From assembly GCA_964518505.1 (NCBI GenBank), contig CAZFGT010000004.1:29114-93113 (forward strand): 64,000 nt of DNA. Direction: 5' to 3'. The DNA is from an uncultured Anaerolineaceae bacterium (GTDB lineage Bacteria > Chloroflexota > Limnocylindria > Limnocylindrales > CSP1-4). Numbering within the stretch: position 1 is the first letter of the stretch; each line of letters starts with the position of its first letter. The notes under the pieces are model-generated. The model was given only the letters and a program-made list of their open reading frames with translations, was not told where the DNA came from and did not search any database. Both the position numbers and the translations under genes were made by a program. Positions 7,381 to 42,637 of the stretch are shown here, piece after piece.

Positions 7381-8361
7381 TCAGGCGCGCGACGCGAACC
7401 GGTCCGTTGCCTCCAGCAGGCGCCGGTCCATCTCGGCGTCGCCCGTATGCCCGCCGGCGATGAAGTGGAGCTCGGCCGCCGGCCAGGCACGCGCGAGCTG
7501 CCACGCCACGTCCGGCGGACCCGACAGGTCCAGGCGACCGTGCAGGAGGACACTGGGGATCCCGGCCAGCCGAGACGCGTTGCCGAGCAGCTCCCCCTCC
7601 TCGAGCCACGCGGCGTGCGAGAAGTAATGGGTCACGAGTCGGGCGAAGGCGACCATGAAGCGCTCGTCCGCCCAGCGCGGATGCGGCGTGATGTAGCCGT
7701 CCTCGAGCGACAGCACCGCATCCTCCCAGGCGACCCAGTCGCGCGCCGCCTGGAGTCGGACGGCCGGATCGTCAGTGTGGTTGAGGAGCCGGTCGTAGGC
7801 CGTCACGAGGTCGCCGTCGCGGTCGCCCGGAGGGACGCCATCGCGGAAGTGCGCCCATTCCGCGGGGAAGAAGCGGCCGGTCTCGTGCGCGAACCAGTGC
7901 ACGTCCGAGCGGCGGGTCATGGTGATCGACAGCAGGACCATCGCAGACACGCGATCGGGGTGGCGCTCGGCGTAGGCGAGGGCCAGGGTGACGCCCCACG
8001 ATCCGCCCCACACGAGCCACCGGTCGATGCCCAGGTGCTCCCGCAGCCGCTCGATATCGGCGATCAGGTGGTGGGTGGTGTTGGTCGACAGGTCGGTGGC
8101 CCGATCGCCGGCATGGGGCGTGCTACGGCCGCAGCCTCGCTGGTCGAACTGGACCAGCCGGTACCGCTGCGGGTCGAACCAGCGTCGTCGGCCGGGGGTG
8201 CTCCCGCTGCCCGGCCCGCCATGGAGGGCCAGGGCGGCCTTCCCGTCCGGGTTGCCGGAGACCTCCCAGTAGATCGACTGACCCTCGCCCACCTCGAGCA
8301 TCCCGGTCTGGTAGGGCTCGATGCGCGGGTACGGCTGGGGCCCGCGACGCTCAGCCGCCAT
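7381..8361 (-). CDS. pip: Proline iminopeptidase (prolyl aminopeptidase, S33 family)
   Basis: MAAERRGPQPYPRIEPYQTGMLEVGEGQSIYWEVSGNPDGKAALALHGGPGSG...GGSWGVTLALAYA shows the YP..EPY N-terminus and GGSWG nucleophile. The longer ORF upstream of Met-71 is R/P-rich and overlaps the HD gene. Confidence 0.8.
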   Translation of the reverse strand: MAAERRGPQPYPRIEPYQTGMLEVGEGQSIYWEVSGNPDGKAALALHGGPGSGSTPGRRRWFDPQRYRLVQFDQRGCGRSTPHAGDRATDLSTNTTHHLIADIERLREHLGIDRWLVWGGSWGVTLALAYAERHPDRVSAMVLLSITMTRRSDVHWFAHETGRFFPAEWAHFRDGVPPGDRDGDLVTAYDRLLNHTDDPAVRLQAARDWVAWEDAVLSLEDGYITPHPRWADERFMVAFARLVTHYFSHAAWLEEGELLGNASRLAGIPSVLLHGRLDLSGPPDVAWQLARAWPAAELHFIAGGHTGDAEMDRRLLEATDRFASRA

Positions 8362-8989
8362 GGGCATCCGTGCCGCTGACCCACGGGGAGCGCGCCATCC
8401 AGTCGGCAAGGCCGGTCTGGTGGAGTAGCCGGGCGCTCTGGCAGGTGGGACGGAGGGCCGCCTCGCGGGCGATGGCGGCCAGGAAGTGGCGGTCGAAGGC
8501 GCGACGCGGGAACTCGCGCATGACGCCGCGGCGCGTTGCCTCGACGAGTTCGAAGCCGTCGCCACGCACATCCAGCCCGGTCGCCCGGTCCAGCAGCACC
8601 GCCTCGACGCCGTCCGCCAGCGTCACCGACGGCTGCATGTGGAGGACGATCGCCGTGGCGACCCGATCGGCCGTCGCCGGTGCCATGCCTGCACGCTCCA
8701 GGAAGCGGCGGGCGATCTCGGCGCCTTCCACCTCGAAGCAGCGGCGGTTGTGCGGGACACGCGTCAGGCCGTTGTCGTGCATGAGCGAGGCGGTCCACAA
8801 GACCTGGGGATCGAAGGCCCGTCCCTCCCCTGCGGCGAGCGTGGCTCCCCAGCAGTAGGACCGCACCGAGTGGCTCAGCAGGTAGTCCGGCAACGCACGG
8901 TGCACCCACTGCCAGGTACGTCGTGCGACGGCGTCCTGCGGGACCGCGATGCTGGCGATCCGTTGCGGCAGAGGCGGGATGCGTCTCAC
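8351..8989 (-). CDS. HD-domain phosphohydrolase
   Basis: H...R...LMHDNG HD motif; 212 aa. Confidence 0.65.
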   Translation of the reverse strand: MRRIPPLPQRIASIAVPQDAVARRTWQWVHRALPDYLLSHSVRSYCWGATLAAGEGRAFDPQVLWTASLMHDNGLTRVPHNRRCFEVEGAEIARRFLERAGMAPATADRVATAIVLHMQPSVTLADGVEAVLLDRATGLDVRGDGFELVEATRRGVMREFPRRAFDRHFLAAIAREAALRPTCQSARLLHQTGLADWMARSPWVSGTDAHGG

Positions 8990-9064
8990 CGCCCCATCCT
9001 ACGGGCACGCCTCGTCGTTCGTCGTGGTGGGCTAGGCTTGGCTCAACCGCTGGAAAGGAACGCC

Positions 9065-9433
9065 ATGCTCCGCGACAGTCACGGCTTCTCCGGCTTCTCC
9101 ACGAATGACATCCCCAAGGCCAAGGCTTTCTACGCCGACACGCTCGGTCTTCAGGTCACCGAGGCGAACGGCATGCTGACCCTGGAGTTCGCCGGAGGCG
9201 GCCGGGTCATCATCTACCCCAAGCCCGACCATCAGGCCGCCACCTTCACGGTGCTGAACTTGCCGGTCGCCGACATCGACGCTGCCGTCGACGGCCTGAC
9301 GCGGGCCGGGATCACGTTCGAACGCTACGAGGGCGCGGGACAGGATGAGCGAGGGATCGCCCGTGCCTACCCGCCGCCGATCGCCTGGTTCAAGGACCCG
9401 GCCGGCAATATCCTGTCGGTGATCCAGCTCTAG
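9065..9433 (+). CDS. VOC (glyoxalase/bleomycin-resistance) family protein
   Basis: 122 aa from the ATG preceded by GGAAAGGAA RBS; GFSGFSTNDIPKAKAFYADTLGLQV.... The large upstream part of ORF 8486..9433 is antisense to the HD gene. Confidence 0.8.
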   Translation: MLRDSHGFSGFSTNDIPKAKAFYADTLGLQVTEANGMLTLEFAGGGRVIIYPKPDHQAATFTVLNLPVADIDAAVDGLTRAGITFERYEGAGQDERGIARAYPPPIAWFKDPAGNILSVIQL

Positions 9434-10163
9434 GCCCTGACCGCGGCGGCGCCGAAGAGTTCCCCGAGCCTCGCCGCGACGTCGAGCACCGCGGCAGCGG
9501 CCGTGGGCCCGAAGCCGCGGACGGGCAGCACGGGCACCGAGTCCGGCGGGATCGCCCACGCGCTCCACAGGCGGCTGTCCGGGTTGTAAGTCGGTCGCGT
9601 GGCCTGCCAGCCACGGCGCAGCGCGCGGTCGAAGGTGCTCCAGGGGCCGCCCGGGTCGGCCGCCGCCACCTGATGGTCGCGTCCAGGCGCGGGACGAGAG
9701 GCTGCCTTGGTGAGTCTCCACCCCGCCCTGCGGGAGGTGAGAGCGGTTACCGCCATCACGGGCTCCTGGTCTTCCTCGTCCCGCCGCGGCAACGTCGCAT
9801 CGGGACTTGCGCAGGTTCCTTGGCGCGGCCGGGATGCCGGAGGGCCGCTCGGCACCTTCCGGCGGGTCTCTTGGCCCGCGCCCGCACGCGGTCGGAGCAC
9901 CAGCCGTTGACCGGCCGCACCGACGCTGGCGCGGCCGCCGCCCTCGTCGGCGGAGCGACCCGGCCAGCGGGACCTTCGACCCGCGGCAGGTGACCTTCGG
10001 CCCGTTCCGCGCCTGGGCCGGCACCTCCATCCTGTGCCTTCGAACGGACCGCCACTGAACGGACTGCATCCGACGGCGCGAGGACCTACGGCGGGATGCC
10101 GGAGGGTCACGGAGTCGGAACTCTTGTCCCCCAGGCGGTCCGTTCCGATACCCCCCAGCCCAC

Positions 10164-13011: not shown

Positions 13012-14433
13012 TCAGGGTGTGGCCGTCCCGAACCAATCCGTGGCGACCGAGCCACTGCTGAACAGGACGCCATCGCGCATCAAGGTCGGCACCGGGTACT
13101 GGTCGGCCAGCATCGCGGGCGCGTCAGGGCCCGTGATGGTGAGCTTCGTCCAGTGGACCCCGTCCGAAGAGATGTAGTAGTCGTTCTGGCCGGCCGAGTC
13201 GCTCGCCGGGCTCGTGCCAGACCGACCGTATGCGAGCAGCCGATTCCCGTCGCTCGTGAAGGACCCGGCCGGTGAGCCGACGCCCTCGCCCTGCTGGATG
13301 GCCCCGAACGGGTCGGCTGTGCTGGGGGCCCAGGAGTGACCGTCGGCCGACCACCAGATCGCATCTGCGCCAGGCGTCATCCCGGGCGTGACTGACAGCG
13401 CCAGGAAGCCGTTCTGGCCGGCCCATACGTTGTTGAAGCCGAGGCCGCTGGTCGAAGGAGCCTTCGCCGCCGACCAGTGCTGCCCATCGGCCGAGTACCA
13501 CGCCAGCGGCTTGGCCGTCGGGGAGGCCTGGTCGCCGCTCCAGCCGACGGCCACGAAGCCGTTGGCATTGACGGCCAGATCGGTGATCTGGGCGACGGCG
13601 GGCCCCGGCAGCGAGATGCGCTGCCAGGTGACGCAGTCCGTGGTGACTAGCAGCGCGGTCCCGTTGGCCGCTCCGCCGCCGGTCTCCGTGTCCGCGACGG
13701 CGACCGAGCCGCGCGCCACGAGGGTCCCACGGCTGTCGTTGTGGAATGGCGCCTGGGTCCACGTCGTGCCGTCGCTGGAAGACCACAAGGTGACGGTGCC
13801 CACGCCTTCTGGTGTCGCGTGGTCCATCTCGACCAGGACCCGGTCGCCACACGCCGTGGCGCTGTTGAAGAGCGTGTCGCCGCTCGCGGCGTCGAAGCCG
13901 AACACCGAGAAGGGCAGTTCGGTCCAAGAGCGCCCGTCCGTCGACGTCCAACCCCGATTGAACCCGTTGGTCGTCTCGGCGCCGATGGCGATGTAGCCAC
14001 CGCTCCACGGCACCACGTTCGCCTGGATCGGCATCGGGGCCGTCAGGGCCGTGACGGTCAGGCCTGTCCACGCGCTGGTGGACACCGCCGGGACCGTCGG
14101 ACCGGGCGTCGGGGTCGGGGCTGGCGTCGCCGTCGGCACCGCGGATGAGCTGGATGTCGCGCTTGGCGTCGGTGACCCACCCGGCGTTACGGGCACGGGG
14201 GTCTGGGTGAACCGCAGGGTCAGCGCGATGATCGCCACGACGGCGACGACCGCCGCCACGGTGACCAGCTGGCGCGGCCACGCGAAGCGGGCCAGCCAGC
14301 CGCCGCCCGCCGACGCGGTGGCAGACGTCATGGAGCGGGTCACGCGGTCGTGGAGGGCGGCCGGAGCGGCCCCCGTGTCGTATCGGGCATGCAGGCGGCG
14401 ACTGAGTCGGGCCTCCAGTTCACGCTCGTCCAT
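13012..14433 (-). CDS. Anti-sigma factor, single-pass membrane protein with extracytoplasmic BNR/Asp-box repeat domain
   Basis: Cytoplasmic N-terminus, TM LVTVAAVVAVVAIIALTL, PT-rich linker, then five or more SxDGxxW(T/S) repeats (STDGRSWT, SSDGTTWT, SADGQHWS, SADGHSWA, SSDGVHWT). Its start overlaps the sigma gene stop by 14 nt. Confidence 0.7.
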   Translation of the reverse strand: MDERELEARLSRRLHARYDTGAAPAALHDRVTRSMTSATASAGGGWLARFAWPRQLVTVAAVVAVVAIIALTLRFTQTPVPVTPGGSPTPSATSSSSAVPTATPAPTPTPGPTVPAVSTSAWTGLTVTALTAPMPIQANVVPWSGGYIAIGAETTNGFNRGWTSTDGRSWTELPFSVFGFDAASGDTLFNSATACGDRVLVEMDHATPEGVGTVTLWSSSDGTTWTQAPFHNDSRGTLVARGSVAVADTETGGGAANGTALLVTTDCVTWQRISLPGPAVAQITDLAVNANGFVAVGWSGDQASPTAKPLAWYSADGQHWSAAKAPSTSGLGFNNVWAGQNGFLALSVTPGMTPGADAIWWSADGHSWAPSTADPFGAIQQGEGVGSPAGSFTSDGNRLLAYGRSGTSPASDSAGQNDYYISSDGVHWTKLTITGPDAPAMLADQYPVPTLMRDGVLFSSGSVATDWFGTATP

Positions 14434-14944
14434 CGGTCGCCTCCAGGGTCGTGCGCAGGGTTCGAAGCGCGTAATGCAGCCGCGACTTGACCGTGCCGAG
14501 CGGCAGGTCGAGGCGGTCCGCGATGTCCTCGAGGCTCATGTCGCGCCAGTAGCGCAGCAGGACCACGAGGCGGTGGTCGGGATCCAATCGATCGAAAGCC
14601 GCGTCAAGGTCGGGGTCGCCCGAGCGATCGGCCGGGTCGGGTGCCGTCCCCTCCCCCGTCCAGGCCGACTGCAGCGCGATCGCGCGGACGCGTTGACGCT
14701 GGCGCCGCCGCAGCCGATCACGGCACCCGTTGATGAGGACCCGCTCGAACCAGGCGTCGAACCGATCCTCGTCGCGCAGCGAGCCGCCTTTCTGCCACGC
14801 CGTCAGGCAGGCATCCTGGACGGCGTCCTCGGCTTCCCGCTCATCCGAAAGGATGGCTCGGGCCAGCCGGTAGCCCCGATCGACTTGTCCCTCGATACGC
14901 CGGGCCAGGGTGTCCCGCCGATCGACCGCCATCACGGTCTCCAC
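14420..14944 (-). CDS. ECF (sigma-70 family) RNA polymerase sigma factor
   Basis: 174 aa; region 2 ...AEDAVQDACLTAWQK... and region 4 ...LSLEDIADRLDLPLGTVKSRLHYAL.... Confidence 0.85.
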   Translation of the reverse strand: METVMAVDRRDTLARRIEGQVDRGYRLARAILSDEREAEDAVQDACLTAWQKGGSLRDEDRFDAWFERVLINGCRDRLRRRQRQRVRAIALQSAWTGEGTAPDPADRSGDPDLDAAFDRLDPDHRLVVLLRYWRDMSLEDIADRLDLPLGTVKSRLHYALRTLRTTLEATDGRA

Positions 14945-14998: not shown

Positions 14999-15026
14999 GA
15001 CGCGCGACCCGGTCGAAAAGGTTCAA
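14999..15026 (-). promoter_or_regulatory. Putative ECF-type autoregulatory promoter (TGAACC-N17-CGTC) upstream of sigma gene
   Basis: Read on the minus strand as TTGAACCttttcgaccgggtcgcgCGTC, about 50 nt upstream of the sigma start; resembles the AAC-N16/17-CGT ECF consensus. Confidence 0.3.
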
Positions 15027-15094
15027 CGATGCGTAGTGGCGTCGCGCCGATGCCCGCAGCCGGAGCCGGACGCTGATCTGGCATCGCCGCCCAA

Positions 15095-15268
15095 CGTGGT
15101 CAACCGTGACTGGGGGGCACGTTAGAGCCGCTTTCGGCCGCCGGCGGGGCCTGCCGAGGGTCCGGCTGCCCGGCCCTCGTGCTCAGGCTGGTCCATCCAC
15201 GGTCGGGTAGGCAGCCCTGGGACGCCCCGCAACTGCCTTACCGTGCCGGGGAGTCAGATCTGACCACG
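15095..15268 (+). repeat. Intergenic repeat element copy A (~174 bp) with imperfect 26-nt terminal inverted repeats, each containing a GTCA-N4-TGAC palindrome
   Basis: Left end CGTGGTCAACCGTGACTGGGGGGCACGTTAGAGCCG; right end GTGCCGGGGAGTCAGATCTGACCACG. A second copy lies at 40620..40804. Confidence 0.5.
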
Positions 15269-15337
15269 TATGCCACGGGCTCGGCGCGGCGAGGCTTCGG
15301 ACGCCACGGCAGCCGGCGCCTCAACCAGGAGCGTCGG

Positions 15338-17311
15338 TCAGGCGGCCTCGGCGACCGGCGCGGTGAACTGGCTCGAGTAGAGCTCGTAGTAGAAGCCGCG
15401 CTGGGCGAGGAGCGACTCGTGGTCGCCCTGCTCCACGATCTTGCCATGGTTCATGACCAGGATCGTGTGGGCGTCGCGGATGGTCGAGAGGCGGTGCGCG
15501 ATGACGAACGACGTGCGCCCTTCCATGAGCTTGGCCATGGCCCGCTGGATCAGCACCTCGGTGCGGGTGTCGACGGAGCTGGTGGCCTCATCGAGGATGA
15601 GGATCTGGGGGTCGGCCAGGAAGGCGCGGGCGATGGTCAGCAGCTGCTTCTCGCCCTGCGACAGGTTGGTCGCGTCGTCGTCGATGACCGTGTCGTAGCC
15701 CTCGGCCAGCGTGCGCACGAAGTGATCCACGTGCGCGGCCTCGGCGGCGGCCACGATCTGCTCCTCCGTCGCCCCCTCCAGGCCGTAGGCGATGTTCTCG
15801 CGGATCGTGCCGTGGAAGAGCCACGCGTCCTGGAGGACCATGCCGAAGGTGTGGCGCAGGTCGTCACGGGTCATCTCGCGCGTGTCGACACCGTCGACCG
15901 TGATGCGGCCACCGTCGATCTCGTAGAAGCGCATCAGGAGGTTGACGAGGGTCGTCTTGCCGGCACCCGTGGGCCCGACGATGGCGATGGTGTGGCCGGG
16001 CTGCACGACGAGGTTCATGTCGTCGATGAGCGGCACGTCTGGCAGGTAGCGGAACGAGACATCGTCGAACACGACCTGGCCGGCGGCGTGCTCGACCCGC
16101 TGGGGCTCGGCCACGTCGGGGATCTCCTCGGTCTCGTCGAGCAGCTCGAAGGCCCGCTCGGCCGAGGCCACCGCCGACTGGATCACGTTGAGGATGCTGG
16201 CCGTCTGGATGATCGGCTGGGTGAACTGCCGCGAGTACTGCACGAAGGCCTGGACGTCGCCCAGGGTCAGCTGTCCGGAGGCGACTCGCAGGCCGCCGAT
16301 GACGGCCACGCCGACATAGTTGAGGTTGGCGATGAAGCTCATCGCCGGCTGGATGATGCCGGAGATGAACTGGGCCCGGTAGCTGGCGTCGTACAGCTTC
16401 TCGTTCTGCTCCTGGAAGGTGGCCAGGGCTTCCTCCTGGCGGCCGAAGACGGTCACGATGGCGTGCCCGGTGTGCATCTCCTCGACGTGCCCGTTGAGCG
16501 CGCCGGTGATCTTCCACTGCGCCGCGAACTGCTTCTGCGACCGCTTGGCGATGAGCGCGGCGACGATGACCGAGGCGGGCACGGCCAGCAGCGAGATGAC
16601 CGCCAGCTCCGGGCTGATGAGCACCATCATCACGAGCACGCCGATGACGGTCAGGACCGACGTGATGAGCTGGGTGAGGCTTTGCTGGAGCGTCTGGCCG
16701 ATGTTGTCGATGTCGTTGGTGACGCGGCTCAGGATGTCGCCGCGGGGGTGGCTGTCGAAATACTTGAGCGGCAACCGGCCCAGCTTCTCGTCGACGTCGG
16801 TCCGCAGCCGATAGACCGTCCGCTGGGTCACGCCGGCCATGAGGTAGGCCTGGCCCCATGCGAACAGCGAGCTGATGATGAAGATGCCGGCCAGGATGAG
16901 CAGGATCTGACCAAGGGCGCCGAAGTCGATGCCGTGGCCGGGGAGGACGGTCATGCCTGACAGGAGGTCGGCGATCTGGCCCTGACCGGAGGCTCGCAGG
17001 CCGGCCTCCACCTGCGCCTGGGTCAGGTTCGCGGGCAGGTTCTTGCCGATGACGCCGGAGAAGATGATGTCGGTGGCGTTGCCCAGGATGCGTGGCCCCA
17101 GGACCGAGGTCGTCACGCTCACGATGGCCAGGCCGATGACGACGACCACGATGTGCGCCTCTGGGCGGAGGCGGCCGAGCAGGCGGAAGAAGGCGCCGCG
17201 GAAGTCCTTGGGTTTCTCGGCGGGCATGCCCATCATGCCGCCCTGCCAGCGGTTGGGGCCGCCGCCACCGGGCCGCCCCGCGCCACCGCCGACGCCGTGA
17301 GGTCCGCTCAT
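15338..17311 (-). CDS. ABC transporter, fused permease/ATP-binding protein (type I exporter), subunit 2
   Basis: Six-TM ABC_membrane region plus Walker A GPTGAGKTT, signature LSQGEKQLLTIARA and Walker B ILILDEATS. Start chosen at the ATG that overlaps the upstream stop (ATGA, 17311..17308). Confidence 0.85.
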   Translation of the reverse strand: MSGPHGVGGGAGRPGGGGPNRWQGGMMGMPAEKPKDFRGAFFRLLGRLRPEAHIVVVVIGLAIVSVTTSVLGPRILGNATDIIFSGVIGKNLPANLTQAQVEAGLRASGQGQIADLLSGMTVLPGHGIDFGALGQILLILAGIFIISSLFAWGQAYLMAGVTQRTVYRLRTDVDEKLGRLPLKYFDSHPRGDILSRVTNDIDNIGQTLQQSLTQLITSVLTVIGVLVMMVLISPELAVISLLAVPASVIVAALIAKRSQKQFAAQWKITGALNGHVEEMHTGHAIVTVFGRQEEALATFQEQNEKLYDASYRAQFISGIIQPAMSFIANLNYVGVAVIGGLRVASGQLTLGDVQAFVQYSRQFTQPIIQTASILNVIQSAVASAERAFELLDETEEIPDVAEPQRVEHAAGQVVFDDVSFRYLPDVPLIDDMNLVVQPGHTIAIVGPTGAGKTTLVNLLMRFYEIDGGRITVDGVDTREMTRDDLRHTFGMVLQDAWLFHGTIRENIAYGLEGATEEQIVAAAEAAHVDHFVRTLAEGYDTVIDDDATNLSQGEKQLLTIARAFLADPQILILDEATSSVDTRTEVLIQRAMAKLMEGRTSFVIAHRLSTIRDAHTILVMNHGKIVEQGDHESLLAQRGFYYELYSSQFTAPVAEAA

Positions 17312-19089
17312 GCCGCCTGCGCCTCCGCCGCGGTGAGCTGGGAGAAGACGATCTCGCGATAGGTCTCGCACGTCTCGAGCAGCTCGTGGTGGCGGCCTAC
17401 GCCGACCACGCGACCCTCGTCCATGACCACGATCTGGTCGGCGTGCATGATCGTGCCGACGCGCTGCGCCACGATGAGCACGGTCGCGGACGACAGCTCG
17501 TGGTGCAGGGCGGCGCGCAGCTGGGCATCCGTCCTGAAGTCAAGGGCGGAGAAGCTGTCGTCGAAGATGTAGACCGGGGCGCGCTTGACCAGGGCGCGGG
17601 CGATGGCGAGGCGCTGCCGCTGTCCGCCGGAGACGTTCGTCCCGCCCTGGTCGACCGGGGCCTGCAGCTGGCCCTCCATCTCGGACACGAAGGTCTTGCC
17701 CTGGGCGATCTCCAGGGCGTGCCACAGCGCCTCATCGTCGGCGGTCTCGTCGCCGTACCGGAGGTTGCTGGCGACCGTGCCGCTGAAGAGGAAGGCGCGC
17801 TGAGGGACGACCCCGATGCGCTGCCAGAGGTCCTCGCGCGTCATCTGGCGGACGTCCACGCCGTCCACCAGCAGCGCGCCACCGGTCACGTCGTAGAAGC
17901 GCGGGATCAGGTTGACCAGGGTGGTCTTGCCGCTACCCGTCGAGCCCACGATGGCGGTCGTCTCGCCAGGCCTGGCGGTGAACGAGATGTCATGGAGCAC
18001 CGGCTGCTCCGCGCCCGGGTAGCGGAACTCGACGCTGCGGAACTCGATCGTGCCGGCGATGGTGGGGCTGGAGGCACCCGTGCCGTTGCCGTGGGCGGCC
18101 ACGACCGTCGGCATGACGACCGGCTTCTCGGGGTCCTTGATGCTCGGCTCGATCGTCAGGACCTCCTGGATCCGGTCGGCCGAAACGGCGGCCCGGGGGA
18201 CCAGGATGAACATGAAGACGGCCATCAGGACGGCCATCAGGATCTGCATCAGGTAGGCCAGGAAGGCCGTCAGGTTGCCGATGGGCATGCCGCCCGAGTC
18301 GACCCGGATGGAGCCGAACCACATCACGGCGACCGTCGACAGGTTGAAGATGGCCATCATCACCGGGATGGTCACGGCGAACAGCCGGTTGACCCGGATC
18401 GAGGTGTCGAAGAGGTCGCGGTTGGCCGCCTCGAAGCGCACCTCTTCGTGTCGCGTGCGCACGAACGCGCGGATGACGCGCACGCCGGCCAGGGCCTCGC
18501 GCATGACCTGGTTGATGCGGTCCAGCTTGGCCTGCATCGCCCGGAAGAGCGGGATGGCGCGGCGCATGACGAGGAAGACCACGACGAACATGAGAGGCAG
18601 GATCACGACCAGGAGCCCGGACAGGGGCACGTCCTCGCGGAGGGCCATGATCACCCCGCCGATGCCCGTGATCGGCGCCAGGATCATGATCGTCAGGGCC
18701 ATGAAGATGACCATCTGGACCTGCTGGACGTCGTTCGTGTTGCGGGTGATCAGCGAGGCCGTCCCGAAGTGGTTGATCTCCACCTGGGCGTAGCCGGCGA
18801 CGCGCTTGAAGATCGCCGCGCGCACGTCGCGCCCGAAGGCCATGGCCACCCGCGCCCCGAAGTACACGGCCACGACGGCGCACACGCCCAGCAGCAGGCT
18901 CACCACCAGCATGAAGAGGCCGGTCCGGATGATGTAGTCGGTGTCGCCCTTGGCGATGCCGTTGTTGATGATGTCGGCGTTCAGGCTGGGCAGGTACAGG
19001 TTGGCGATGGCCTGCACGAGCAGCAGCACCAGGACGACGCTGATCTGGCGCATGTAGGGGCGCAGGTATTGGCGCAGGAGCGGGATCAT
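17308..19089 (-). CDS. ABC transporter, fused permease/ATP-binding protein (type I exporter), subunit 1
   Basis: 593 aa with TM domain, Walker A GSTGSGKTT, signature VSGGQRQRLAIARA and Walker B; likely a heterodimeric partner. Confidence 0.85.
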   Translation of the reverse strand: MIPLLRQYLRPYMRQISVVLVLLLVQAIANLYLPSLNADIINNGIAKGDTDYIIRTGLFMLVVSLLLGVCAVVAVYFGARVAMAFGRDVRAAIFKRVAGYAQVEINHFGTASLITRNTNDVQQVQMVIFMALTIMILAPITGIGGVIMALREDVPLSGLLVVILPLMFVVVFLVMRRAIPLFRAMQAKLDRINQVMREALAGVRVIRAFVRTRHEEVRFEAANRDLFDTSIRVNRLFAVTIPVMMAIFNLSTVAVMWFGSIRVDSGGMPIGNLTAFLAYLMQILMAVLMAVFMFILVPRAAVSADRIQEVLTIEPSIKDPEKPVVMPTVVAAHGNGTGASSPTIAGTIEFRSVEFRYPGAEQPVLHDISFTARPGETTAIVGSTGSGKTTLVNLIPRFYDVTGGALLVDGVDVRQMTREDLWQRIGVVPQRAFLFSGTVASNLRYGDETADDEALWHALEIAQGKTFVSEMEGQLQAPVDQGGTNVSGGQRQRLAIARALVKRAPVYIFDDSFSALDFRTDAQLRAALHHELSSATVLIVAQRVGTIMHADQIVVMDEGRVVGVGRHHELLETCETYREIVFSQLTAAEAQAA

Positions 19090-33432: not shown

Positions 33433-34383
33433 TTACGGCTGGCGCTGGCTTTGAAGGATGTGCCGCGCGCGCGCCGCGTCCAGGTCCATCTGGGTCACCA
33501 GGGCCGCCGCCGAGGTGAAGCGCCGTTCGCCGCGCTGTCGCCGGACGAACTCCACCCGCAGGCGCCGCCCGTAGAGGTCGGGCGAGACGTCGAACAGGTG
33601 CGCTTCGAGCAGCCGCGACCGCTCCCCGAAGGTGGGCCGCACGCCGAGCGAGGCCACGCCGTCGGCACGATGCCTGGGGTGGAGTGGATCGGGGCCGTCC
33701 CATGACGCCCGGACCGCATAGATGCCATCCGGCGGCAGGGCCACCGGTTGGTCGAAGGCCAGGTTGGCCGTGGGATACCCCAGCTCGCGGCCGCGGCCAT
33801 CGCCGTGCACCACGGTGCCGACGACGGCGAAGCGGCGGCCCAGGAGCGTGCGCGCGGTGGCCAGCCGCCCGCCCGCCACGAGCTCGCGAAGACGTGAATC
33901 CGAGACCCGCGCGCCGCGCAGCACGACCGACGGGACCTCCACCAGGTCGAAGCCGAAGCGCGCCGCGACCGGCGGCAAGGTCTGGAGCGTGCCGCCGCGG
34001 CCCTTGCCGAAGGCCGAGTCGCGGGTCATCAGCAGCGCCACCAGCGGGCCGCCCTGGTCCAGGCGTTCCACGAACGCTTCCGCAGGGGTCGCCGCCACGT
34101 CGCGATCGAAGGGGTAGCGGACGAGGAGATCGACCCCCAGCGAGGCGAAGCGCGCATCCCGCTCCGCCGGGTCGCACAGGAGGAGCGGCGACGCGCCGCG
34201 CAGGACCGCATCGGGATGGGGCGTGAAGGTGACGACGGTGGGAGCCGCCCCGCGAGCCCGTGCCGCCTCCACGAGCATGCCGAGCAGTCGCTGGTGGCCG
34301 CGGTGGACGCTGTCGAAGGCGCCCACGATCACGGCCAGGGGGCGGGCGTCGCGACGCGCCCGCAGGTCGCTGACGATCTCCAC
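33433..34383 (-). CDS. ribF: Bifunctional riboflavin kinase / FMN adenylyltransferase
   Basis: VIVGAFDSVHRGHQRLL... and C-terminal riboflavin kinase ...GYPTANL.... Confidence 0.9.
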   Translation of the reverse strand: MEIVSDLRARRDARPLAVIVGAFDSVHRGHQRLLGMLVEAARARGAAPTVVTFTPHPDAVLRGASPLLLCDPAERDARFASLGVDLLVRYPFDRDVAATPAEAFVERLDQGGPLVALLMTRDSAFGKGRGGTLQTLPPVAARFGFDLVEVPSVVLRGARVSDSRLRELVAGGRLATARTLLGRRFAVVGTVVHGDGRGRELGYPTANLAFDQPVALPPDGIYAVRASWDGPDPLHPRHRADGVASLGVRPTFGERSRLLEAHLFDVSPDLYGRRLRVEFVRRQRGERRFTSAAALVTQMDLDAARARHILQSQRQP

Positions 34384-34386
34384 GCG

Positions 34387-35370
34387 CTACGGTTCCGCCG
34401 CTTCGACCGGGGCGGCCGGCTCGGCCGTGATGAAGACCTTCTCGGGGTGCAGCCGGCCCCCTTCGAAGCGGGCGATCGCCGCCAGCCGTCCGGCCGTATC
34501 GACGATCCGCCAGGGCGTGCCGTGGGCGACGTGCGGGGCTCGTGCTGCGACCTCGGTCGCCACGTCACCGCGCGGCCGGACGACCTGGCCCCTGGCGAGC
34601 GCGGCCATCTCCTCGGGCGGCAACGTGATGGATGGCAGCGCTTCGAGCCCCGTGTCGGGCGGCAGGAGCACCCGCTCGGCGGCACCGCTGGCGAGGGCCT
34701 CGCGGACCGTGTCGAGGGGATGGGCGGTGGCCAGGTCGAAGGCCCCGCTGCGCGTGCGGGTGAGCGCCACGAGGTAGGCGCCGCAGCCCAGGTGCTCGCC
34801 AAGGTCCCGTGCCAGGGCGCGGACGTAGGTCCCGGCGGTGCAGGCGATCTCCAGCACGGCCGTGGGACGTTCCGGATCGCTGGCGTCCCAGGTGGTGAGC
34901 TCAAGGGACGTGATGGTCACGTCACGCGGGGCCAGCACCGGCGTCTCGCCGCCGCGGGCCAGCTCGTACGCGCGGCGGCCCGCGACGTGGACGGCCGAAT
35001 GGCTCGGCGGCACCTGGGCCAGTCGCCCCCGGAAGGCCTCCAGGGCGGCTTCGACCGTCGGGCGGTCCGGGGCGGGCGTGGTGCCGGGGGTCAGCTCGCC
35101 GTCCAGGTCGTCGGTAGTGGAGCGCGCGCCGAACGCGACGGTCGCCCGATAACCCTTGTCGTCCCCCAGGTGGTATTCGACGACGCGGGTGGCGTGGCCA
35201 AGGAAGACGGGCAGGACGCCTGAAGCGAAGGGGTCCAGCGTGCCGCCGTGGCCCACCCGGCGCACGCCGCTGAGGCGCCGGATGAGGGCCACCACGTCGT
35301 GCGAGGTCGGGCCGGCCGGCTTGTCGACGACGATGATGCCGTCGACTTCGACAGTCCCCGTCGTGGTCAC
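34387..35370 (-). CDS. truB: tRNA pseudouridine(55) synthase
   Basis: GIIVVDKPAGPTSHDVVALIRRLSGVRRVGHGGTLDPFASGVL. GTG start overlaps the DHH stop (GTGA); upstream part of the ORF-track call is G/R-rich overlap. Confidence 0.85.
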   Translation of the reverse strand: MTTTGTVEVDGIIVVDKPAGPTSHDVVALIRRLSGVRRVGHGGTLDPFASGVLPVFLGHATRVVEYHLGDDKGYRATVAFGARSTTDDLDGELTPGTTPAPDRPTVEAALEAFRGRLAQVPPSHSAVHVAGRRAYELARGGETPVLAPRDVTITSLELTTWDASDPERPTAVLEIACTAGTYVRALARDLGEHLGCGAYLVALTRTRSGAFDLATAHPLDTVREALASGAAERVLLPPDTGLEALPSITLPPEEMAALARGQVVRPRGDVATEVAARAPHVAHGTPWRIVDTAGRLAAIARFEGGRLHPEKVFITAEPAAPVEAAEP

Positions 35371-36395
35371 GCCGGCGACGGGCCGGCGATGAGCCGCTCC
35401 GCGACCGCCAGCACGATCGCCTGCGCCTCCGCCAGCGGGGCCGCCACCGTCGCGCCGGCGGCGCGCGCATGGCCGCCGCCGCCCCACGTCCCGGCCAGCT
35501 GCGTGGCATCGATGCCGCCGTCGCGGGTGCGGATGCTGAGACGGGTCTGGTGGCCGGCCTCCTTGAAGAGGATGGCGATGTCGGCGGTGGCGGATTGGCT
35601 CAGCAGGTCGATCAGGCCCTCCGAGTCAGAGGCGTCGCTGCCGGTGGCGGCCAGGTCGGCCTCCTCCAGGCGACTCCACACGAGACGGCCATCCGCGGCG
35701 CTCTCCAGGCGCGCCAGGACCACGCCGAACAGCTTCAGCTGGCGGTTGGGCTTGGTGCGGTAGAGGCGCCGCGACGTTTCGTACAGCGGCGCCCCGGCGG
35801 CCACGAGCTCGGCCGCCACCCGCAGCGTGCGGGCGGTCGTGTTGGGGTGCTGGAAGGTGGCCGTGTCGATGACCAGCCCGGCCATCAGGCTCGTCGCGAG
35901 TTGCCCCCCGGCGATCCCCAGGGGGACCTCCAGCCGGGCGGCCAGCAGCGTCGTCATCTCGCACGTGGCGGCGGCCGACGGGTCGATCCAGTCCACCGCC
36001 CCGAAACCCGGGTTGGACTTGTGGTGGTCGATGTCCAGGATGGGCACCCGCCCGAACAACTCGGCGTGATCGCGCAGGAGCGGGCCGACCCGCTCCAGCT
36101 CCCCGCAGTCGCCGACCACGATGAGGTCGTAGGCCACGCCCGGTTCGGGGGCCCGGCGGAAGCGCGAGAGGCCCGGCATGAAGTCGTACATGGGCGGCAC
36201 CGCGTCGGCGCAGATGGGCCACGCGGTGCCCCCCAGGGCCTCCACGAGGAGCGCATGGGCGAGCGCCGAGCCGAGCGCGTCGGCCTCCGGGTTCTCGTGG
36301 CAGACCGTGAGGACGCGGCGAGCGCCACGCAGCGTGGCCACGACCGCCTCAGGGACGGCGGCGACGTCGGCCGCAGTGAGCGAGGTGAGCGTCAC
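35367..36395 (-). CDS. DHH/DHHA1 phosphoesterase (NrnA-like bifunctional oligoribonuclease/pAp phosphatase)
   Basis: ...VLTVCHENPEADALGS..., DIDHHKSN, C-terminal GGGGHARAAG. Confidence 0.8.
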   Translation of the reverse strand: MTLTSLTAADVAAVPEAVVATLRGARRVLTVCHENPEADALGSALAHALLVEALGGTAWPICADAVPPMYDFMPGLSRFRRAPEPGVAYDLIVVGDCGELERVGPLLRDHAELFGRVPILDIDHHKSNPGFGAVDWIDPSAAATCEMTTLLAARLEVPLGIAGGQLATSLMAGLVIDTATFQHPNTTARTLRVAAELVAAGAPLYETSRRLYRTKPNRQLKLFGVVLARLESAADGRLVWSRLEEADLAATGSDASDSEGLIDLLSQSATADIAILFKEAGHQTRLSIRTRDGGIDATQLAGTWGGGGHARAAGATVAAPLAEAQAIVLAVAERLIAGPSPA

Positions 36396-36847
36396 TTGCT
36401 GCGCCTTGGCCGGCGCGGCTGGCGGGGCGGCCGCGGCTCGGGGGTGGCGCGTGCGGCGATGGCCGGCGTGGGCAGCGTCTCGTCGAGCGGCAGAGCGGTC
36501 GGATCGGCATGGCCCGCCTCCAGCTCCTCGATGAGGTGCAGCACGCGCGTGCCGCGCAGGACGGTCTCGTCCTCGCGCAGGTGCAATTCGGGGATGCGCT
36601 TGAGGCGCAGCTCGCCAAGACGGTGCCGCAGGAACGGCATGGCGCGGCCCAGCGCCCGCATCGCCTCGCGGCGTTCATCGGGCTGGCCGATGAGTGACAC
36701 CCACACCGTGGCGTGGCGCAGGTCGGGGGTCACGTCGACCTTGCTGACCGTCACGAACCCGATGCGCGGGTCGTGGACCTCACGCGCGATGAGGCCGCTC
36801 AGTTCCTCCTGGAGCAGGGCGTCCAGGCGGGGCACACGCGCGCTCAT
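36392..36847 (-). CDS. rbfA: Ribosome-binding factor A
   Basis: RVPRLDALLQEELSGLIAREVHDPRIGFVTVSKVDVTPDLRHATVWVSL. Confidence 0.85.
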   Translation of the reverse strand: MSARVPRLDALLQEELSGLIAREVHDPRIGFVTVSKVDVTPDLRHATVWVSLIGQPDERREAMRALGRAMPFLRHRLGELRLKRIPELHLREDETVLRGTRVLHLIEELEAGHADPTALPLDETLPTPAIAARATPEPRPPRQPRRPRRSK

Positions 36848-36875
36848 GCCGCTGGTCCCCGTCGCCCGCGGAGGA

Positions 36876-38768
36876 CTAGGACGAGGCCGCGCGCGACACC
36901 GTCTGCTGGGTGAAGCATTCGATGATGTCGCCCTCCGCCAGTTCGTGGTAGCCGGCCAGGCCGATGCCGCACTCGAAGCCGGTGCCGACCTCGCGCACGT
37001 CGTCCTTGAAGCGACGCAGGGATTCGATGCGGTCGGTGGCGATCAGCTTGCCGCCCCGATACACGCGGGCCCCGCCGCGGACGATGCGCCCCTCGGTGAC
37101 ATAGGAGCCGGCGATGACCGCGCTCTTGCCCACCTTGAAGATCTGGCGCACCTCGGCCCTGCCTTCGACGGTCTCCACCAGCTCCGGCTCGAGGAGGCCC
37201 TTGAGGGCGGCCTCGATGTCGTCGGTCAGCTTGTAGATGATGTCGTAGAGGCGGATGTCGACCCCTTCGGCCTCGGCCGCCCGGCGGGCCGTCGGATCGA
37301 GCTTCGTACTGAAGCCCACGATGATGGCTTCGGACGCCGAGGCCAGCAGGACGTCGTTGTCGGTGATGTCGCCGGTGCCCTCGCGGATGATGTTGATGTG
37401 GACCTCGTCGGTGGCCACTTGCTCGACGGCGTGGTGGATGGCCCCCAGCGAACCCTGCACGTCGGCCTTGATGATGAGCCGCAGCTCCTTGGTCTGACCC
37501 GCCTGGATCTGGCGATAGAGGTCCTCCAGGGTCGCCCGGCCGGTCCCTTCGGGCCGCGCGGCGGAGGCGCGCCGCTGGTCGATCATGGCGCGCGCGGTCT
37601 TCTCGTCGGCCACGACGCGCAGGACGTCACCGGCGGCCGGCACCTCGGCCAGGCCCAGCAGCACGAGGGCGGCCGACGGCCCACCCTTGCTGACGCGCTC
37701 GCCCTTGCTGTTCTCGAGCGCTCGCACGCGCCCGGACGTGTCGCCTACGACGACCGTGTCGCCGACGCGCAGCGTGCCGGTCTGGATGAGGATGGTGGCC
37801 ACCGCGCCGCGGCCCTTGTCGAGCTCGGCCTCCACGACCGTGCCGATGGCCGGCCGCTTGGGGTCGGCCCGCAGGTCCTGCAGGTCGGCCACCAGGAGGA
37901 CCATCTCGAGCAGGTCGTCGATGCCCAGGCGCTGCTTGGCGCTGACCTGGACGAGGGGCACGTCGCCGCCGTAGTCCTCGACCACGACGCCGTGCTCCGA
38001 CAGCTCGGTCTTGACGCGGTCGGGGTTGGCGTCCGGCTTGTCGATCTTGTTGAGGGCGATGATGATCGGCACCTTGGCCGCGCGGGCGTGGTCGATGGCC
38101 TCCAGCGTCTGGGGCATCACGCCGTCGTCGGCGGCGACCACCAGGACGGCGATGTCGGTGACCTTGGCGCCGCGGGCGCGCATCGCAGTGAAGGCCTCGT
38201 GACCGGGCGTATCCAGGAAGACGATGCGCCGGCCGTTGTGGGTGACCTCGCTGGCGCCGATGTGCTGGGTGATGCCGCCGCGCTCGCCGCCGGCGATGTC
38301 CGTGGTGCGGATGGCGTCGAGGAGGCTCGTCTTGCCGTGGTCGACGTGGCCCATGACGGTCACGATCGGGGCGCGCGGCACGAGCTTGGTCGGGTCGGCG
38401 TCCTCGAAGAGGACCTCCTTGGTGGCCTCGGAGACGGGCGCCTCGCCGTTGGCCTCGGCCGGCTCAGCGGCGGTCGCCTCGGCGATCTCGTAGCCAAGCT
38501 CGCCGGCCACGAGGCTGGCCGTGTCGCGGTCGACCAGCTGGTTGATCGTGGCGAAGATGCCGCTCTTGATCAACTCGCGGATGACGTCCGCGACGTTCAC
38601 GCCGAGCAGCTCGGCCAGCTCCTTGACCGTCAGCGAGGCCGGGATCTCGACCGCGCCACGCTCGGTGGGGTCGATGACCTGGACGACCGTCGCGCCGCTC
38701 TGGAGGGGGGTGCGGGGGGGCTTGCGGGGACCGCGCCGGTTGCGCGTCCCGCTGCGGCTACGCGCCAT
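36876..38768 (-). CDS. infB: Translation initiation factor IF-2 (short form)
   Basis: G-domain [22 protein letters not shown]-terminal beta-barrels. Start at Met-7 (38768) to limit the overlap with ylxR. Confidence 0.9.
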
Positions 38769-39048
38769 GGGGGTCTCCTTGGGCATGCATCATGGGTCCG
38801 GCCTGCAACTGGGCGAGCAGGTCGGCGGGAAGTTCGGTACCGAGGGCGTGCTGGATCGCGCCGCGCTTGAGGGCGGTCGCCCAGCAGGCGCCATCGGCGC
38901 ACAGGTAGGCCCCGCGTCCGGCGCGGCGCCCGGTGGTGTCAAGGGTCAGGCCGCCGTCGGGCAGGCGCACGACGCGGATGAGCTCACGCTTGGTCCGCTC
39001 CGTGCGGCACGCCACGCACGTCCGCATCGGCTGGCGGCGAGGCGCCAT
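38758..39048 (-). CDS. YlxR/DUF448 family RNA-binding protein
   Basis: PMRTCVACRTERTKRELIRVVRLPDGGLTLDTTGRRAGRGAYLC in the standard nusA-ylxR-infB position. Confidence 0.75.
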   Translation of the reverse strand: MAPRRQPMRTCVACRTERTKRELIRVVRLPDGGLTLDTTGRRAGRGAYLCADGACWATALKRGAIQHALGTELPADLLAQLQAGPMMHAQGDPHGA

Positions 39049-39059
39049 CGTGGACGCCG

Positions 39060-40415: not shown

Positions 40416-40467
40416 GTTGCGCCTCCTCCTCTCAGTGCCTCGATGGCGGGGCGACCACTCAACAAAG

Positions 40468-40526
40468 AACGTGGGGGTCACCCACGTCTTGAGGCGGCCG
40501 GACCGATGCTCGGCGAAGTATAGCAG
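40468..40526 (-). promoter_or_regulatory. nusA promoter extended -10 (TGCTATACT) and leader hairpin ACGUGGG-GGUCA-CCCACGU
   Basis: Minus-strand GGGCTGCTATACTTCGCC ~100 nt upstream of the nusA GTG; 7-bp perfect hairpin ~50 nt upstream of the start. Confidence 0.35.
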
Positions 40527-40619
40527 CCCACGCTCCCACGCTCCCGGGCGCGATCGGCCGAGCTTGGGCTGAGCGGCCCTGCGCGGGGGCGTCTGAAAGC
40601 GGCCGCGGCGCCGCGAGAA

Positions 40620-40860
40620 CCTGGTCAGATGTGACCCGGGGGCACGTTAGGGCCGGTGTTCGACGTGCGGGCGGGCACCTTGGGCGCCGCTCGGGCTCTG
40701 GTCGTTGCGTGGCGGCGCTCGTCCGACGCCCGGCCACGCCGCTGACCGGCCGCCCGAGGCGCTGCGAACCGCCCCAACGTGCCCGGGAGTCAGGTTTGAC
40801 CAGGTCCCGGCCGTGAGCCGTCGCCGCGACCGGCTCGCGCCCCGAATGTGGTCACCGACC
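40620..40860 (+). repeat. Intergenic repeat element copy B (core 40620..40804, plus partial third end 40845..40860)
   Basis: Left end CCTGGTCAGATGTGACCCGGGGGCACGTTAGGGCCG. Right end GTGCCCGGGAGTCAGGTTTGACCAGG. Extra AATGTGGTCACCGACC matches the sequence preceding copy A. The 29-nt left-end core is ~90% identical between copies. Confidence 0.5.
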
Positions 40861-41099
40861 AATCCGGGTGGTACTGGAGCGACTCCGCGCCGCTCGTGCG
40901 GCTCTCTTGCGGTTTCCGGTGGCTCGGCTTGGTTTGTGCGGCCGCACGGAGGCGGCCCCCATGACCGTCTCCGAGGCCGCGCAGAAGCGTGACACCTGCG
41001 CCAATACCACCCCGGTTGGTGGATGGACAGGTTCGCGCCCGCGGCCGGACGCGGCGCGGCCCGGACGAAGAGGCCCGGCGCCGGCCCCCGGCCCGACCC

Positions 41100-42560: not shown

Positions 42561-42637
42561 GGTTGAGCGAGGTCCTCCGAATGGGGCGGAGCGGCTATGG
42601 TACCGAAGCGACACCATCGACACGAGGAGACCGGCCC

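Follow-up and report, generated by a model that had tools for sequence, protein, structure and literature searches.

Interspersed intergenic repeats are known mainly in Proteobacteria and Firmicutes, and their functions are debated. Here, we describe a new family of such repeats from the Limnocylindrales (Chloroflexota), an abundant, uncultured soil and freshwater lineage. The starting point was a 64,000-nucleotide stretch of chromosome (contig CAZFGT010000004.1, hereafter the window), in which a first-pass annotation had reported a two-copy intergenic repeat with imperfect terminal inverted repeats. Both canonical copies, A and B, lie where it had placed them, and the end modules it quoted are exact, but a third, variant element, B2, had been missed. 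A, B, and B2 are members of an undescribed, Limnocylindrales-specific intergenic family, and a literature search on the arm sequence returned primers only. The family is of the bacterial interspersed mosaic repeat kind and is unusually well defined by a spacing rule.

Among the closest described systems, BIME-1/RIP of E. coli combines a REP unit, an L linker with an integration host factor (IHF) site, and an inverted REP, and is bound by host architectural proteins (PMC3333891, PMC2817692). The elements described here likewise have inverted modules around a central (here putative) protein site, are non-coding, and lie between genes, often after stop codons. They differ from BIME-1 in their arms, which are ~37 bp long, are not self-palindromic hairpins, and lack the GTAG tag; in their spacers, which are 42–64 bp long, sequence-free, and length-quantised; and in their apparently low copy number, the absence of any RAYT seen, and their Chloroflexota host of ~71% G+C. 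The Correia/NEMIS element of Neisseria is a miniature transposable element of the inverted-repeat type (MITE) with terminal inverted repeats and a central IHF site (PMC2649163, PMC10969869). Common to Correia and to our family are a length of 100–190 bp, inverted ends, a central bending site (putative here), discrete size classes, and an intergenic position near promoters and gene ends. However, Correia copies, of which there are hundreds, have their whole sequence in common, are flanked by a duplicated TA target, and contain promoter and RNase III features, whereas the interiors here are unrelated, no target is duplicated, and copies are few. The size classes differ by one helical turn here and by a 50-bp deletion in Correia.

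ERIC repeats persist at orthologous positions in different species and are unusually well conserved there. That conservation extends over the full 127 bp and ERIC is thought to act in RNA, whereas only the arms and centre are conserved here, with no detectable selection for pairing. ERIC and IRU resemble our elements in being intergenic imperfect palindromes of low to moderate copy number (PMC10969869) with no known mobilising enzyme. Integron attC and the folded attP of CTX phage share with them inverted ends, a variable middle, an unpaired central spacer, and mismatches when folded, and the inner arm block, GTTAGRG / CYCTAAC, resembles the attC core, GTTRRRY / RYYYAAC. We rejected an integron attC: the motif order is reversed (GTTAGRG left, CYCTAAC right), and there is no integrase, cassette array, or phage nearby. 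Our elements also differ from attC sites in showing no pairing selection, in standing singly or in pairs between housekeeping genes, and in being longer, as attC sites reach ~140 nt. In the gal repressosome, two operators lie 113 bp apart, with HU at the apex of the loop. The likeness to gal is one of palindrome-containing sites, integral helical turns, and a central architectural site, with phase critical and spacer sequence irrelevant. The gal loop encloses a specific promoter at one locus, whereas our elements occupy many unrelated loci at no fixed promoter distance, and their arms are much longer than a typical operator.

Degenerate patterns of the left and right modules each match only A and B in the 64 kb, where dinucleotide-preserving shuffles give chance expectations of 0.00 and 0.01 matches, respectively, and nhmmer found the same two canonical copies only. 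Beyond the window, we searched 185,579 species genomes for exact matches to the left-module pattern. This gave six loci, and at five of them the right module follows 165–190 bp downstream. Two of these are in a Candidatus Limnocylindrales metagenome-assembled genome (MAG) and three in a MAG named “uncultured Chloroflexia”; the sixth locus, in Rhodanobacter, is a chance match. With the right module, 13 loci were obtained from metagenomes, and in 4 of them (soil metagenomes) the left module lies at the expected distance. No arms were found in three scans of viral contigs, and BLASTN with copy B gave no relevant match among plasmids and phages. Related elements were found only in Limnocylindrales genomes and metagenomes, at ~11 independent loci with unrelated neighbour genes.

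These members refute the idea that the window's copies reflect chance similarity or a simple local duplication, for which the presence of only two canonical copies in 64 kb might speak. Zero chance matches were expected, and because the interiors of A and B are unrelated, there was no recent duplication; we give this explanation practically no weight. The first-pass annotation had stated that a lack of further copies would argue for chance; its proposal of a repeat family is instead supported by the further members in related genomes.

Copy number is apparently low, with 3 elements in the 64 kb, 2–3 exact-pattern matches per MAG, and none in newly fetched flanks. Orientation to neighbouring genes varies, with no fixed direction, and most copies lie 30–70 bp downstream of a stop codon. 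Some elements stand in tandem (B with B2, E1 with E2 in L004, and L014; loci and contigs outside the window carry L numbers), and others have decayed: L015 keeps one arm of E2, and L035 carries a truncated copy that is not in L034. In L034, GTTCTAACCGTGCCACCCCC at ~9825–9850, a short way downstream of the ortholog of A, looks like the beginning of a right arm and may be a relic of a further element. L004 contains ~1.3 kb of extra DNA that is absent from its ortholog L015 (2719–3998 vs. 609–663) and that holds a minus-strand membrane-protein-like gene directly beside element E1; the difference is a gene gain or loss at the element's edge.

Each element consists of a left arm, an 8–10-bp central motif with the consensus C-R-Y-GCTC-R-G, and a right arm, for a total of 165–190 bp. 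Copies A (15094–15269) and B (40619–40805) both have inverted arms of ~37 nt, and B2 (40846–41032), 40 bp from B, is a variant (type II) element. Their parts are as follows:

15094..15130, plus strand: left arm of copy A (type I), ACGTGGTCAACCGTGACTGGGGGGCACGTTAGAGCCG (nhmmer E = 1.5e-11)
15131..15178, no strand: left spacer of copy A; with the arm's AGCCG, 53 nt from CACGTTAG to the central 8-mer
15179..15186, plus strand: central motif of copy A, GTGCTCAG, of the consensus given above
15187..15232, no strand: right spacer of copy A; the central 8-mer and the degenerate CTAACGTG in the right arm are 51 nt apart
15233..15269, plus strand: right arm of copy A, CTGCCTTACCGTGCCGGGGAGTCAGATCTGACCACGT (nhmmer E = 5.3e-10)
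40619..40655, plus strand: left arm of copy B (type I), ACCTGGTCAGATGTGACCCGGGGGCACGTTAGGGCCG (nhmmer E = 8.2e-12)
40715..40722, plus strand: weak central motif of copy B, GCGCTCGT, 64 nt past CACGTTAG and 51 nt before the right-arm block
40769..40805, plus strand: right arm of copy B, CCGCCCCAACGTGCCCGGGAGTCAGGTTTGACCAGGT (nhmmer E = 9.4e-11)
40846..41032, no strand: copy B2 (type II), beside B, with an interior of 123 nt; conserved in L005 and L021

The end modules reported earlier are real, but the conserved arms are longer, at ~37 nt or more. All arms fit the consensus A-Y-N-TGGTCA-N4-TGAC-(7-mer Y-C(n)-G(m))-CACGTTAG-RGC, in which the conserved blocks (TGGTCA, TGAC, and GGCACGTTAG-RGC) are about one helical turn apart and the N4 gap is hypervariable, orthologs included. 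The right end had been described as an imperfect reverse complement of the left at ~20 of 26 nt; the counts are 20/26 in B and 18/26 in A. In both copies, the mismatches between arms are concentrated in the 4-nt gap of GTCA-N4-TGAC and in the G-rich 7-mer. The right arm of A is the reverse complement of the arm consensus with its inner block decayed to CTTACCGTG, and the perfect 12-mer noted there, GTCAGATCTGAC, is located at 15253–15264. The palindrome GTCA-N4-TGAC, said to occur in every end module, is present throughout A and B but is lost in type II arms, where CCAA replaces TGAC and GGTGGTAC-TSGAGC replaces GGGCACGT-TAGAGC. The arms of B2 read ATGTGGTCA-CCGA-CCAA-TCCGGG-TGGTAC-TGGAGC and CCAATACCA-CCCCGG-TTGG-TGGA-TGGACAGGT. 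Type II was found in B2, next to B in L005 and L021, in L004 (E2), and in L014, and it shares one centre and one geometry with type I.

The two arms are not equivalent in their 7-mer, which has n = 0–3 in the left arm and n = 2–4 in the reverse-complemented right arm. As a consequence, the same strand is G-rich in both arms, and a folded form would carry G.G mismatches; these are absent in L003 and L021 and kept in most copies. At position 20 of the arm consensus, 23 of 24 arms have their G on the same strand. The G-run falls on the locally G-rich strand at seven of eight independent loci, but strand composition was rejected as its cause, as a local skew of 1–5% is too weak.

The interiors had been called poorly conserved. 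This holds for their sequence, which is 0.30–0.51 identical between loci (a few lower-scoring pairs excepted), no higher than for unrelated GC-rich sequence; it does not hold for the central motif, which is present, or for the length, which is fixed. A whole-element palindrome test showed the interiors to be neither palindromic nor self-complementary. The centre (e.g. TCGTGCTCAGG and TCACGCTCAGG) is similar to the arm's inner block, with 7 of 11 positions shared. Anchored on the central GCTC, distances in 12 elements from 9 independent loci were:

Centre to right-arm block CTAACGTG: 50–51 nt, in all 12 elements measured
Left-arm block CACGTTAG to centre: 42 nt, at the PcrA locus (L135, L136, and L137)
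Left-arm block CACGTTAG to centre: 52–53 nt, in A, L034, L007, and L004_E2
Left-arm block CACGTTAG to centre: 63–64 nt, in B, L005, L004, L015, and L014_B2
Mirrored, with the 51-nt side on the left: 63–64 nt on the right, in L001 and L003

The type II elements L014_B2 and L004_E2 have the same CCACGCTC(A/G)G centre, with spacings of 63/51 and 53/51. The length classes of 42, 52–53, and 63–64 nt are steps of 10.5 bp, the helical repeat of B-DNA. Given the 50–51 bp on the other side, these steps place all three modules in the same rotational phase. Distances in multiples of ~10.5 bp with free spacer sequence, the pattern of a helically phased multi-site element, were found at 9 independent loci. 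In the GC-rich 50-nt right spacer (+1 to +50), A/T has a best period of 10.5–11. The permutation P is < 0.0002 when all 12 elements are used; with the 9 independent loci, it is 0.003 in the 10–11 band and 0.014 for any period. We take this periodicity as no more than moderate, supportive evidence for helical phasing.

To follow the elements in place, we retrieved orthologous loci via neighbouring proteins. B and B2 are present where NusA is at least 90% identical (L005, L021, and eight contigs of the window's own species) and absent where it is 83% or 75% identical, with a spacer of ~130 bp before nusA there. A is present with a sigma factor 96% identical (L034 and L035) and absent at 77% and 70%. 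At the PcrA locus, L135, L137, and L136 carry the L002 element, whereas L138 lacks it. The relatives with empty nusA and sigma sites are too diverged for precise insertion boundaries.

Between ortholog pairs, the arm cores are identical at 46–50 of 56 positions (82–89%), whereas interiors (0.57–0.67) and 70-nt flanks (0.51–0.73) are close to or at the background value of 0.53 ± 0.03 and align with many gaps. The interior lengths nevertheless agree within 1–3 nt (102/101, 113/112/110, 112/112, and 90/90/90). Retained length with lost sequence implies that substitutions are free between the modules and that insertions and deletions are not. The centre is retained clearly in the A, PcrA, and L004 ortholog sets and weakly at the B locus. 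L034 keeps the GTGCTCAG of copy A although the rest of its interior is at background identity, and its left spacer has kept its length (52 nt) but is unalignable with that of A; L005 has a B-type centre at the same position, reading GCGCTCGG, and the centre of the third ortholog, L021, is degenerate. These comparisons indicate that purifying selection acts, locus by locus, on the arms, the centre, and the spacing. Among the closest genomes, there was no gain or loss at four orthologous loci. Hypervariability or phase variation within the species is ruled out by the proS–nusA spacer, which is near-identical, with only 0–4 single-nucleotide polymorphisms, among the eight same-species contigs.

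The resulting constraint signature is unusually clean: ~85% of the arm, the centre, and the exact spacer lengths survive, and everything else is at background. Together with the one-turn length steps, it argues for a DNA–protein architecture over an RNA. We lean towards reading each element as a composite double-stranded DNA site for a protein complex that synapses both arms over a bent centre. In this model, a sequence-specific protein would bind both arms, an architectural or second protein would bend the centre, and the arms would be brought together over a loop of ~145–165 bp, a layout comparable to those of known transposon-end complexes and of the BIME-1 and Correia complexes. With arm blocks one turn apart, a single helix face could be read by a multi-domain or multimeric protein, and the three modules would hold a constant rotational phase across spacers that are free in sequence and fixed in length. 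As a loop of 145–165 bp is close to the persistence length of DNA, phase and the central bend would both matter. Paired dimeric-regulator operators ~150 bp apart, one suggestion of the first-pass annotation, come closest among its ideas, but the real layout is larger, with two ~37-bp composite arms and a central site in helically phased spacing. The spacing rule gives concrete predictions for identifying the predicted binding protein.

Inverted arms could also act in RNA. As part of a 3′ or 5′ untranslated region or as a small RNA, the element would then use its terminal helix to end transcription, to protect the ends of mRNAs, or as a protein-binding site. Within mRNA, the hairpins of REP, ERIC, and Correia act in such ways. 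A long terminal helix is found on both strands (z = −5.3 and −6.1 for copy B), all copies fold at −83 to −124 kcal/mol, most copies lie 30–70 bp past a stop codon, and the mismatch-rich internal loop (G.G) is maintained in most copies. However, good folding is expected, since any inverted repeat in DNA of 71% G+C folds well, and copy A folds no better than shuffles (z = −1.8 and −1.9). In an arms-only alignment of the 12 elements, arm pairing was 77.3%, compared with 78.5% when right arms were shuffled between elements, and the covariation score was 0.059, compared with 0.082 for shuffles, 495 of 500 of which were at least equal. Variable arm positions often break pairs, and wobble-type mismatches on the plus strand show no bias (three loci G.U-type, two A.C-type). 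Apparent compensatory changes between A (CGTGGTCA/TGACCACG) and B (CCTGGTCA/TGACCAGG), with TGGCCA/TGGCCA in L005, were not above the shuffle control. RNAalifold proposed that the central GCTC pairs with the GRGC that succeeds the left arm; this was also set aside, as the right arm is followed by the same tetramer and centres are found in either orientation. With no covariation, the complementarity of the arms stems only from each arm matching one consensus.

Other searches point the same way. An Rfam search, which the first-pass annotation had proposed as a check, returned only noise, both at the gathering threshold over the full window and at E ≤ 10 in the surroundings of A and B; this noise included a mir-1822 match and a Hammerhead_II-like match outside the element (15011–15065, plus strand; 17 bits vs. 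a cut-off of 37, E = 0.88), which overlaps the promoter region of the sigma gene next to A. Scans inside the elements for sigma-70 promoters and terminators were negative, no U-tract was found in the terminator scan, and orientation to flanking transcription is not fixed. A sigma-54 promoter candidate (GGCACG...GC) was rejected on its spacing, GG-N9-GC, the consensus being N10. An RNA offers no evident reason for spacers quantised at 10.5 bp or for an interior that is not palindromic. The lack of covariation, free orientation, absence of Rfam matches, promoters, and terminators, and 10.5-bp quantisation together favour recognition as double-stranded DNA. We therefore consider an RNA role improbable, and the structured repeat among the earlier suggestions is not supported as a hairpin or RNA.

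Arms of this kind might also be terminal inverted repeats for a remote transposase, making the element a purely selfish, currently mobile, non-autonomous transposon of the MITE or REPIN type. Consistent with a MITE, the 37-nt inverted arms begin with TG and end with CA, the length is 165–190 bp, and there is no conserved open reading frame. Copies are scattered over unrelated intergenic sites in any orientation within a single lineage, are absent at nusA when NusA is ≤83% identical and at the sigma gene at ≤77%, include the decayed L015 and L035 relics, and stand in tandem at B/B2, L004 E1/E2, and L014; furthermore, three of the eight same-species contigs stop within the proS–nusA spacer. On the other hand, target-site duplications are missing from the 13 copies examined (their flanks carry A-Y-N / N-R-T as an inverted and not a direct repeat), and the interiors are at background similarity across loci, with no common interior as in a MITE. 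Nor did an autonomous insertion sequence with the same ends surface with exact-match patterns, the arms being ~180 bp apart in 9 of 9 pattern matches. Arms are missing from viral contigs, and copies are stable in the four or five closest genomes, without gain or loss at the four orthologous loci. Selection for mobility would not predict that arms, centre, and spacing are kept while neutral DNA is saturated.

The REP variant of this idea fares no better. The REP, BIME, or REPIN unit is a 20–40-nt self-palindromic hairpin with a 5′ GTAG (or CGTC) tag (PMC3333891, PMC3733652). The arrangement of inverted units around a linker with a central motif (a putative protein site) is present here, but within a single arm only GTCA-N4-TGAC pairs (4–5 bp), type II arms lack even that, and the tag position reads GTTAG, with GTAG only in L007/L019. 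No Y1_Tnp (RAYT) domain occurs among the proteins scanned or listed near any copy. We regard a currently mobile transposon as unlikely, and the MITE-like and REP-like labels of the first-pass annotation do not hold.

A third account takes the arms as recombination sites of an invertible DNA switch, with a recombinase flipping the interior between them to give phase variation at several loci. An interior of ~120 bp, intergenic placement, and shared repeats with unrelated interiors fit multi-locus invertons; synapsis of sites ~150 bp apart would need a central bend and helical phasing; the mirrored centre and spacers of L001 and L003 (51 left, 63–64 right) are what an arm-internal inversion gives; and contigs break in the B/B2 region. 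However, L001 and L003 belong to the same MAG, and a single base decides which polarity L003 is given. No locus was seen in both orientations: there is no flip in the ortholog sets A/L034/L035, B/L005/L021, L004/L015, L135/L136/L137, and L007/L019 or in five same-species contigs spanning the proS–nusA spacer (L026, L028, L029, L031, and L032), and the three shorter same-species contigs match the window as far as they extend. No promoter-like sequence lies within the elements and no dedicated recombinase gene nearby, and the gap sequences and 7-mers differ between arms, which would hinder crossover there. An inverton is very unlikely in our estimation.

We return to the composite double-stranded site, whose history would combine features of these accounts. 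A mobile origin is suggested by the relics and by a distribution that is scattered, free in orientation, and confined to one lineage; the missing target-site duplications, unrelated interiors, failure to find an autonomous partner, stability, and in-place conservation point instead to old, retained copies under a constraint at the level of the host or of the element. The elements thus probably originated as non-autonomous mobile elements, of which the present copies are old and positionally stable. Their conservation suggests either a host-level role, for instance in separating transcription units by a nucleoprotein barrier or insulator, or that they still serve as synapses for recombination or transposition.

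Several observations weigh against this interpretation. The spacing classes rest on 9 independent loci only. For those loci, the A/T periodicity of the right spacer weakens without the arm-proximal 8 nt (P = 0.03 in the band, 0.17 for any period) and is not significant in the left spacer. Neither Pfam searches nor gene tables revealed a transposase, recombinase, or IHF-type gene near any copy, and no candidate binding protein was found. A purely symmetric double-stranded site leaves the same-strand G-rich 7-mer of both arms unexplained; the G-run could reflect a strand-specific (single-stranded DNA or RNA) step or a recombination core. The model also leaves unexplained why elements of types I and II are often neighbours, why L001 and L003 have a mirrored geometry, which could be an inversion, and the contig ends in the proS–nusA spacer, which could result from poor coverage of GC-rich inverted repeats or from structural heterogeneity. 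Both strands of every copy fold very stably, which leaves room for a transcribed hairpin. Finally, mobile elements are not usually held in place by purifying selection, and core regulatory sites are not usually patchy among relatives, so that any explanation must combine both.

A more far-reaching version of the composite site, which we consider rather unlikely, treats the elements as the cis sites of an undescribed, lineage-specific DNA machine, in which a dedicated protein would synapse the arms over a bent centre at a few dozen chromosomal positions. The binder might be a domesticated transposase or recombinase, and the products might be stable insulating loops or rarely recombining switches. 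The same-strand G-run could then mark the crossover or a strand-specific step, and type I and type II arms could correspond to two paralogous binders with one central factor.

The window itself is a housekeeping region (smc, ftsY, ffh, rimM, trmD, rnhB, proS, nusA, infB, and pnp) of a Limnocylindrales chromosome, with L005 syntenic to 34381–42407 at 88.9% identity. Pfam searches and gene tables gave no transposase or recombinase gene in the 64 kb, and a search of the window gave no tRNA or tmRNA gene. Its genes are nearly all on the minus strand, yet the plus strand is G-rich (GC skew +0.03 to +0.05 over most of the window), so the coding strand is C-rich here. Genes were placed with a call based on GC content at third codon positions, Pfam searches, and synteny. 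A lies between the 3′ end of an ABC-transporter gene (15338–17371, minus) and an extracytoplasmic function (ECF)-type promoter with its sigma gene (14420–14944, minus), and B lies between proS (41100–42623, minus) and the promoter of nusA (gene 39060–40415, minus). The non-coding setting near minus-strand promoters was described correctly: the left end of A is ~69 bp from the ECF-like −35, and that of B is ~75–100 bp from the nusA promoter (−10 TATACT, 40517–40522, minus). A tie to these particular promoters does not stand, as the same elements occur beside unrelated genes in any orientation, and relatives further away lack them in the DNA upstream of nusA and of the sigma gene.

The elements have a practical effect, in that they appear to break metagenome assemblies and to mislead gene callers. 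Of the eight same-species short-read contigs, three end next to B or inside B2, in the proS–nusA spacer; L027, L030, and L033 start 177, 510, and 610 bp upstream of nusA (approximately window positions 40592, 40925, and 41025). In L021, the proS call (7887–9572) is 561 aa long, 75 codons longer than the 486 aa in the window's species, and crosses the type II element (9396–9582), the expected stop being at ~9346. This extension looks like a gene-calling artefact from a GC-rich repeat.

Two further features lie close to the elements. The ECF-type promoter (TGAACC, 17 nt, CGTC; 14999–15025, minus) lies between A and the sigma gene, upstream of a sigma/anti-sigma-like pair. In L034 and L035, a second copy of it drives an extra 420-aa anti-sigma-like paralogue, which is absent from the window and sits there between the ABC transporter and the element. 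The nusA leader contains a hairpin, GACGTGGGTGACCCCCACGTT, with CTTTGTTGAG after it, at 40468–40488 (minus), with a T-rich tail to ~40458, between the −10 and the nusA start (40415). The hairpin is near-identical in L021, L022, and L023, while the remaining spacer differs. Its appearance is that of a terminator or attenuator conserved in the leader, and it may take part in NusA autoregulation.

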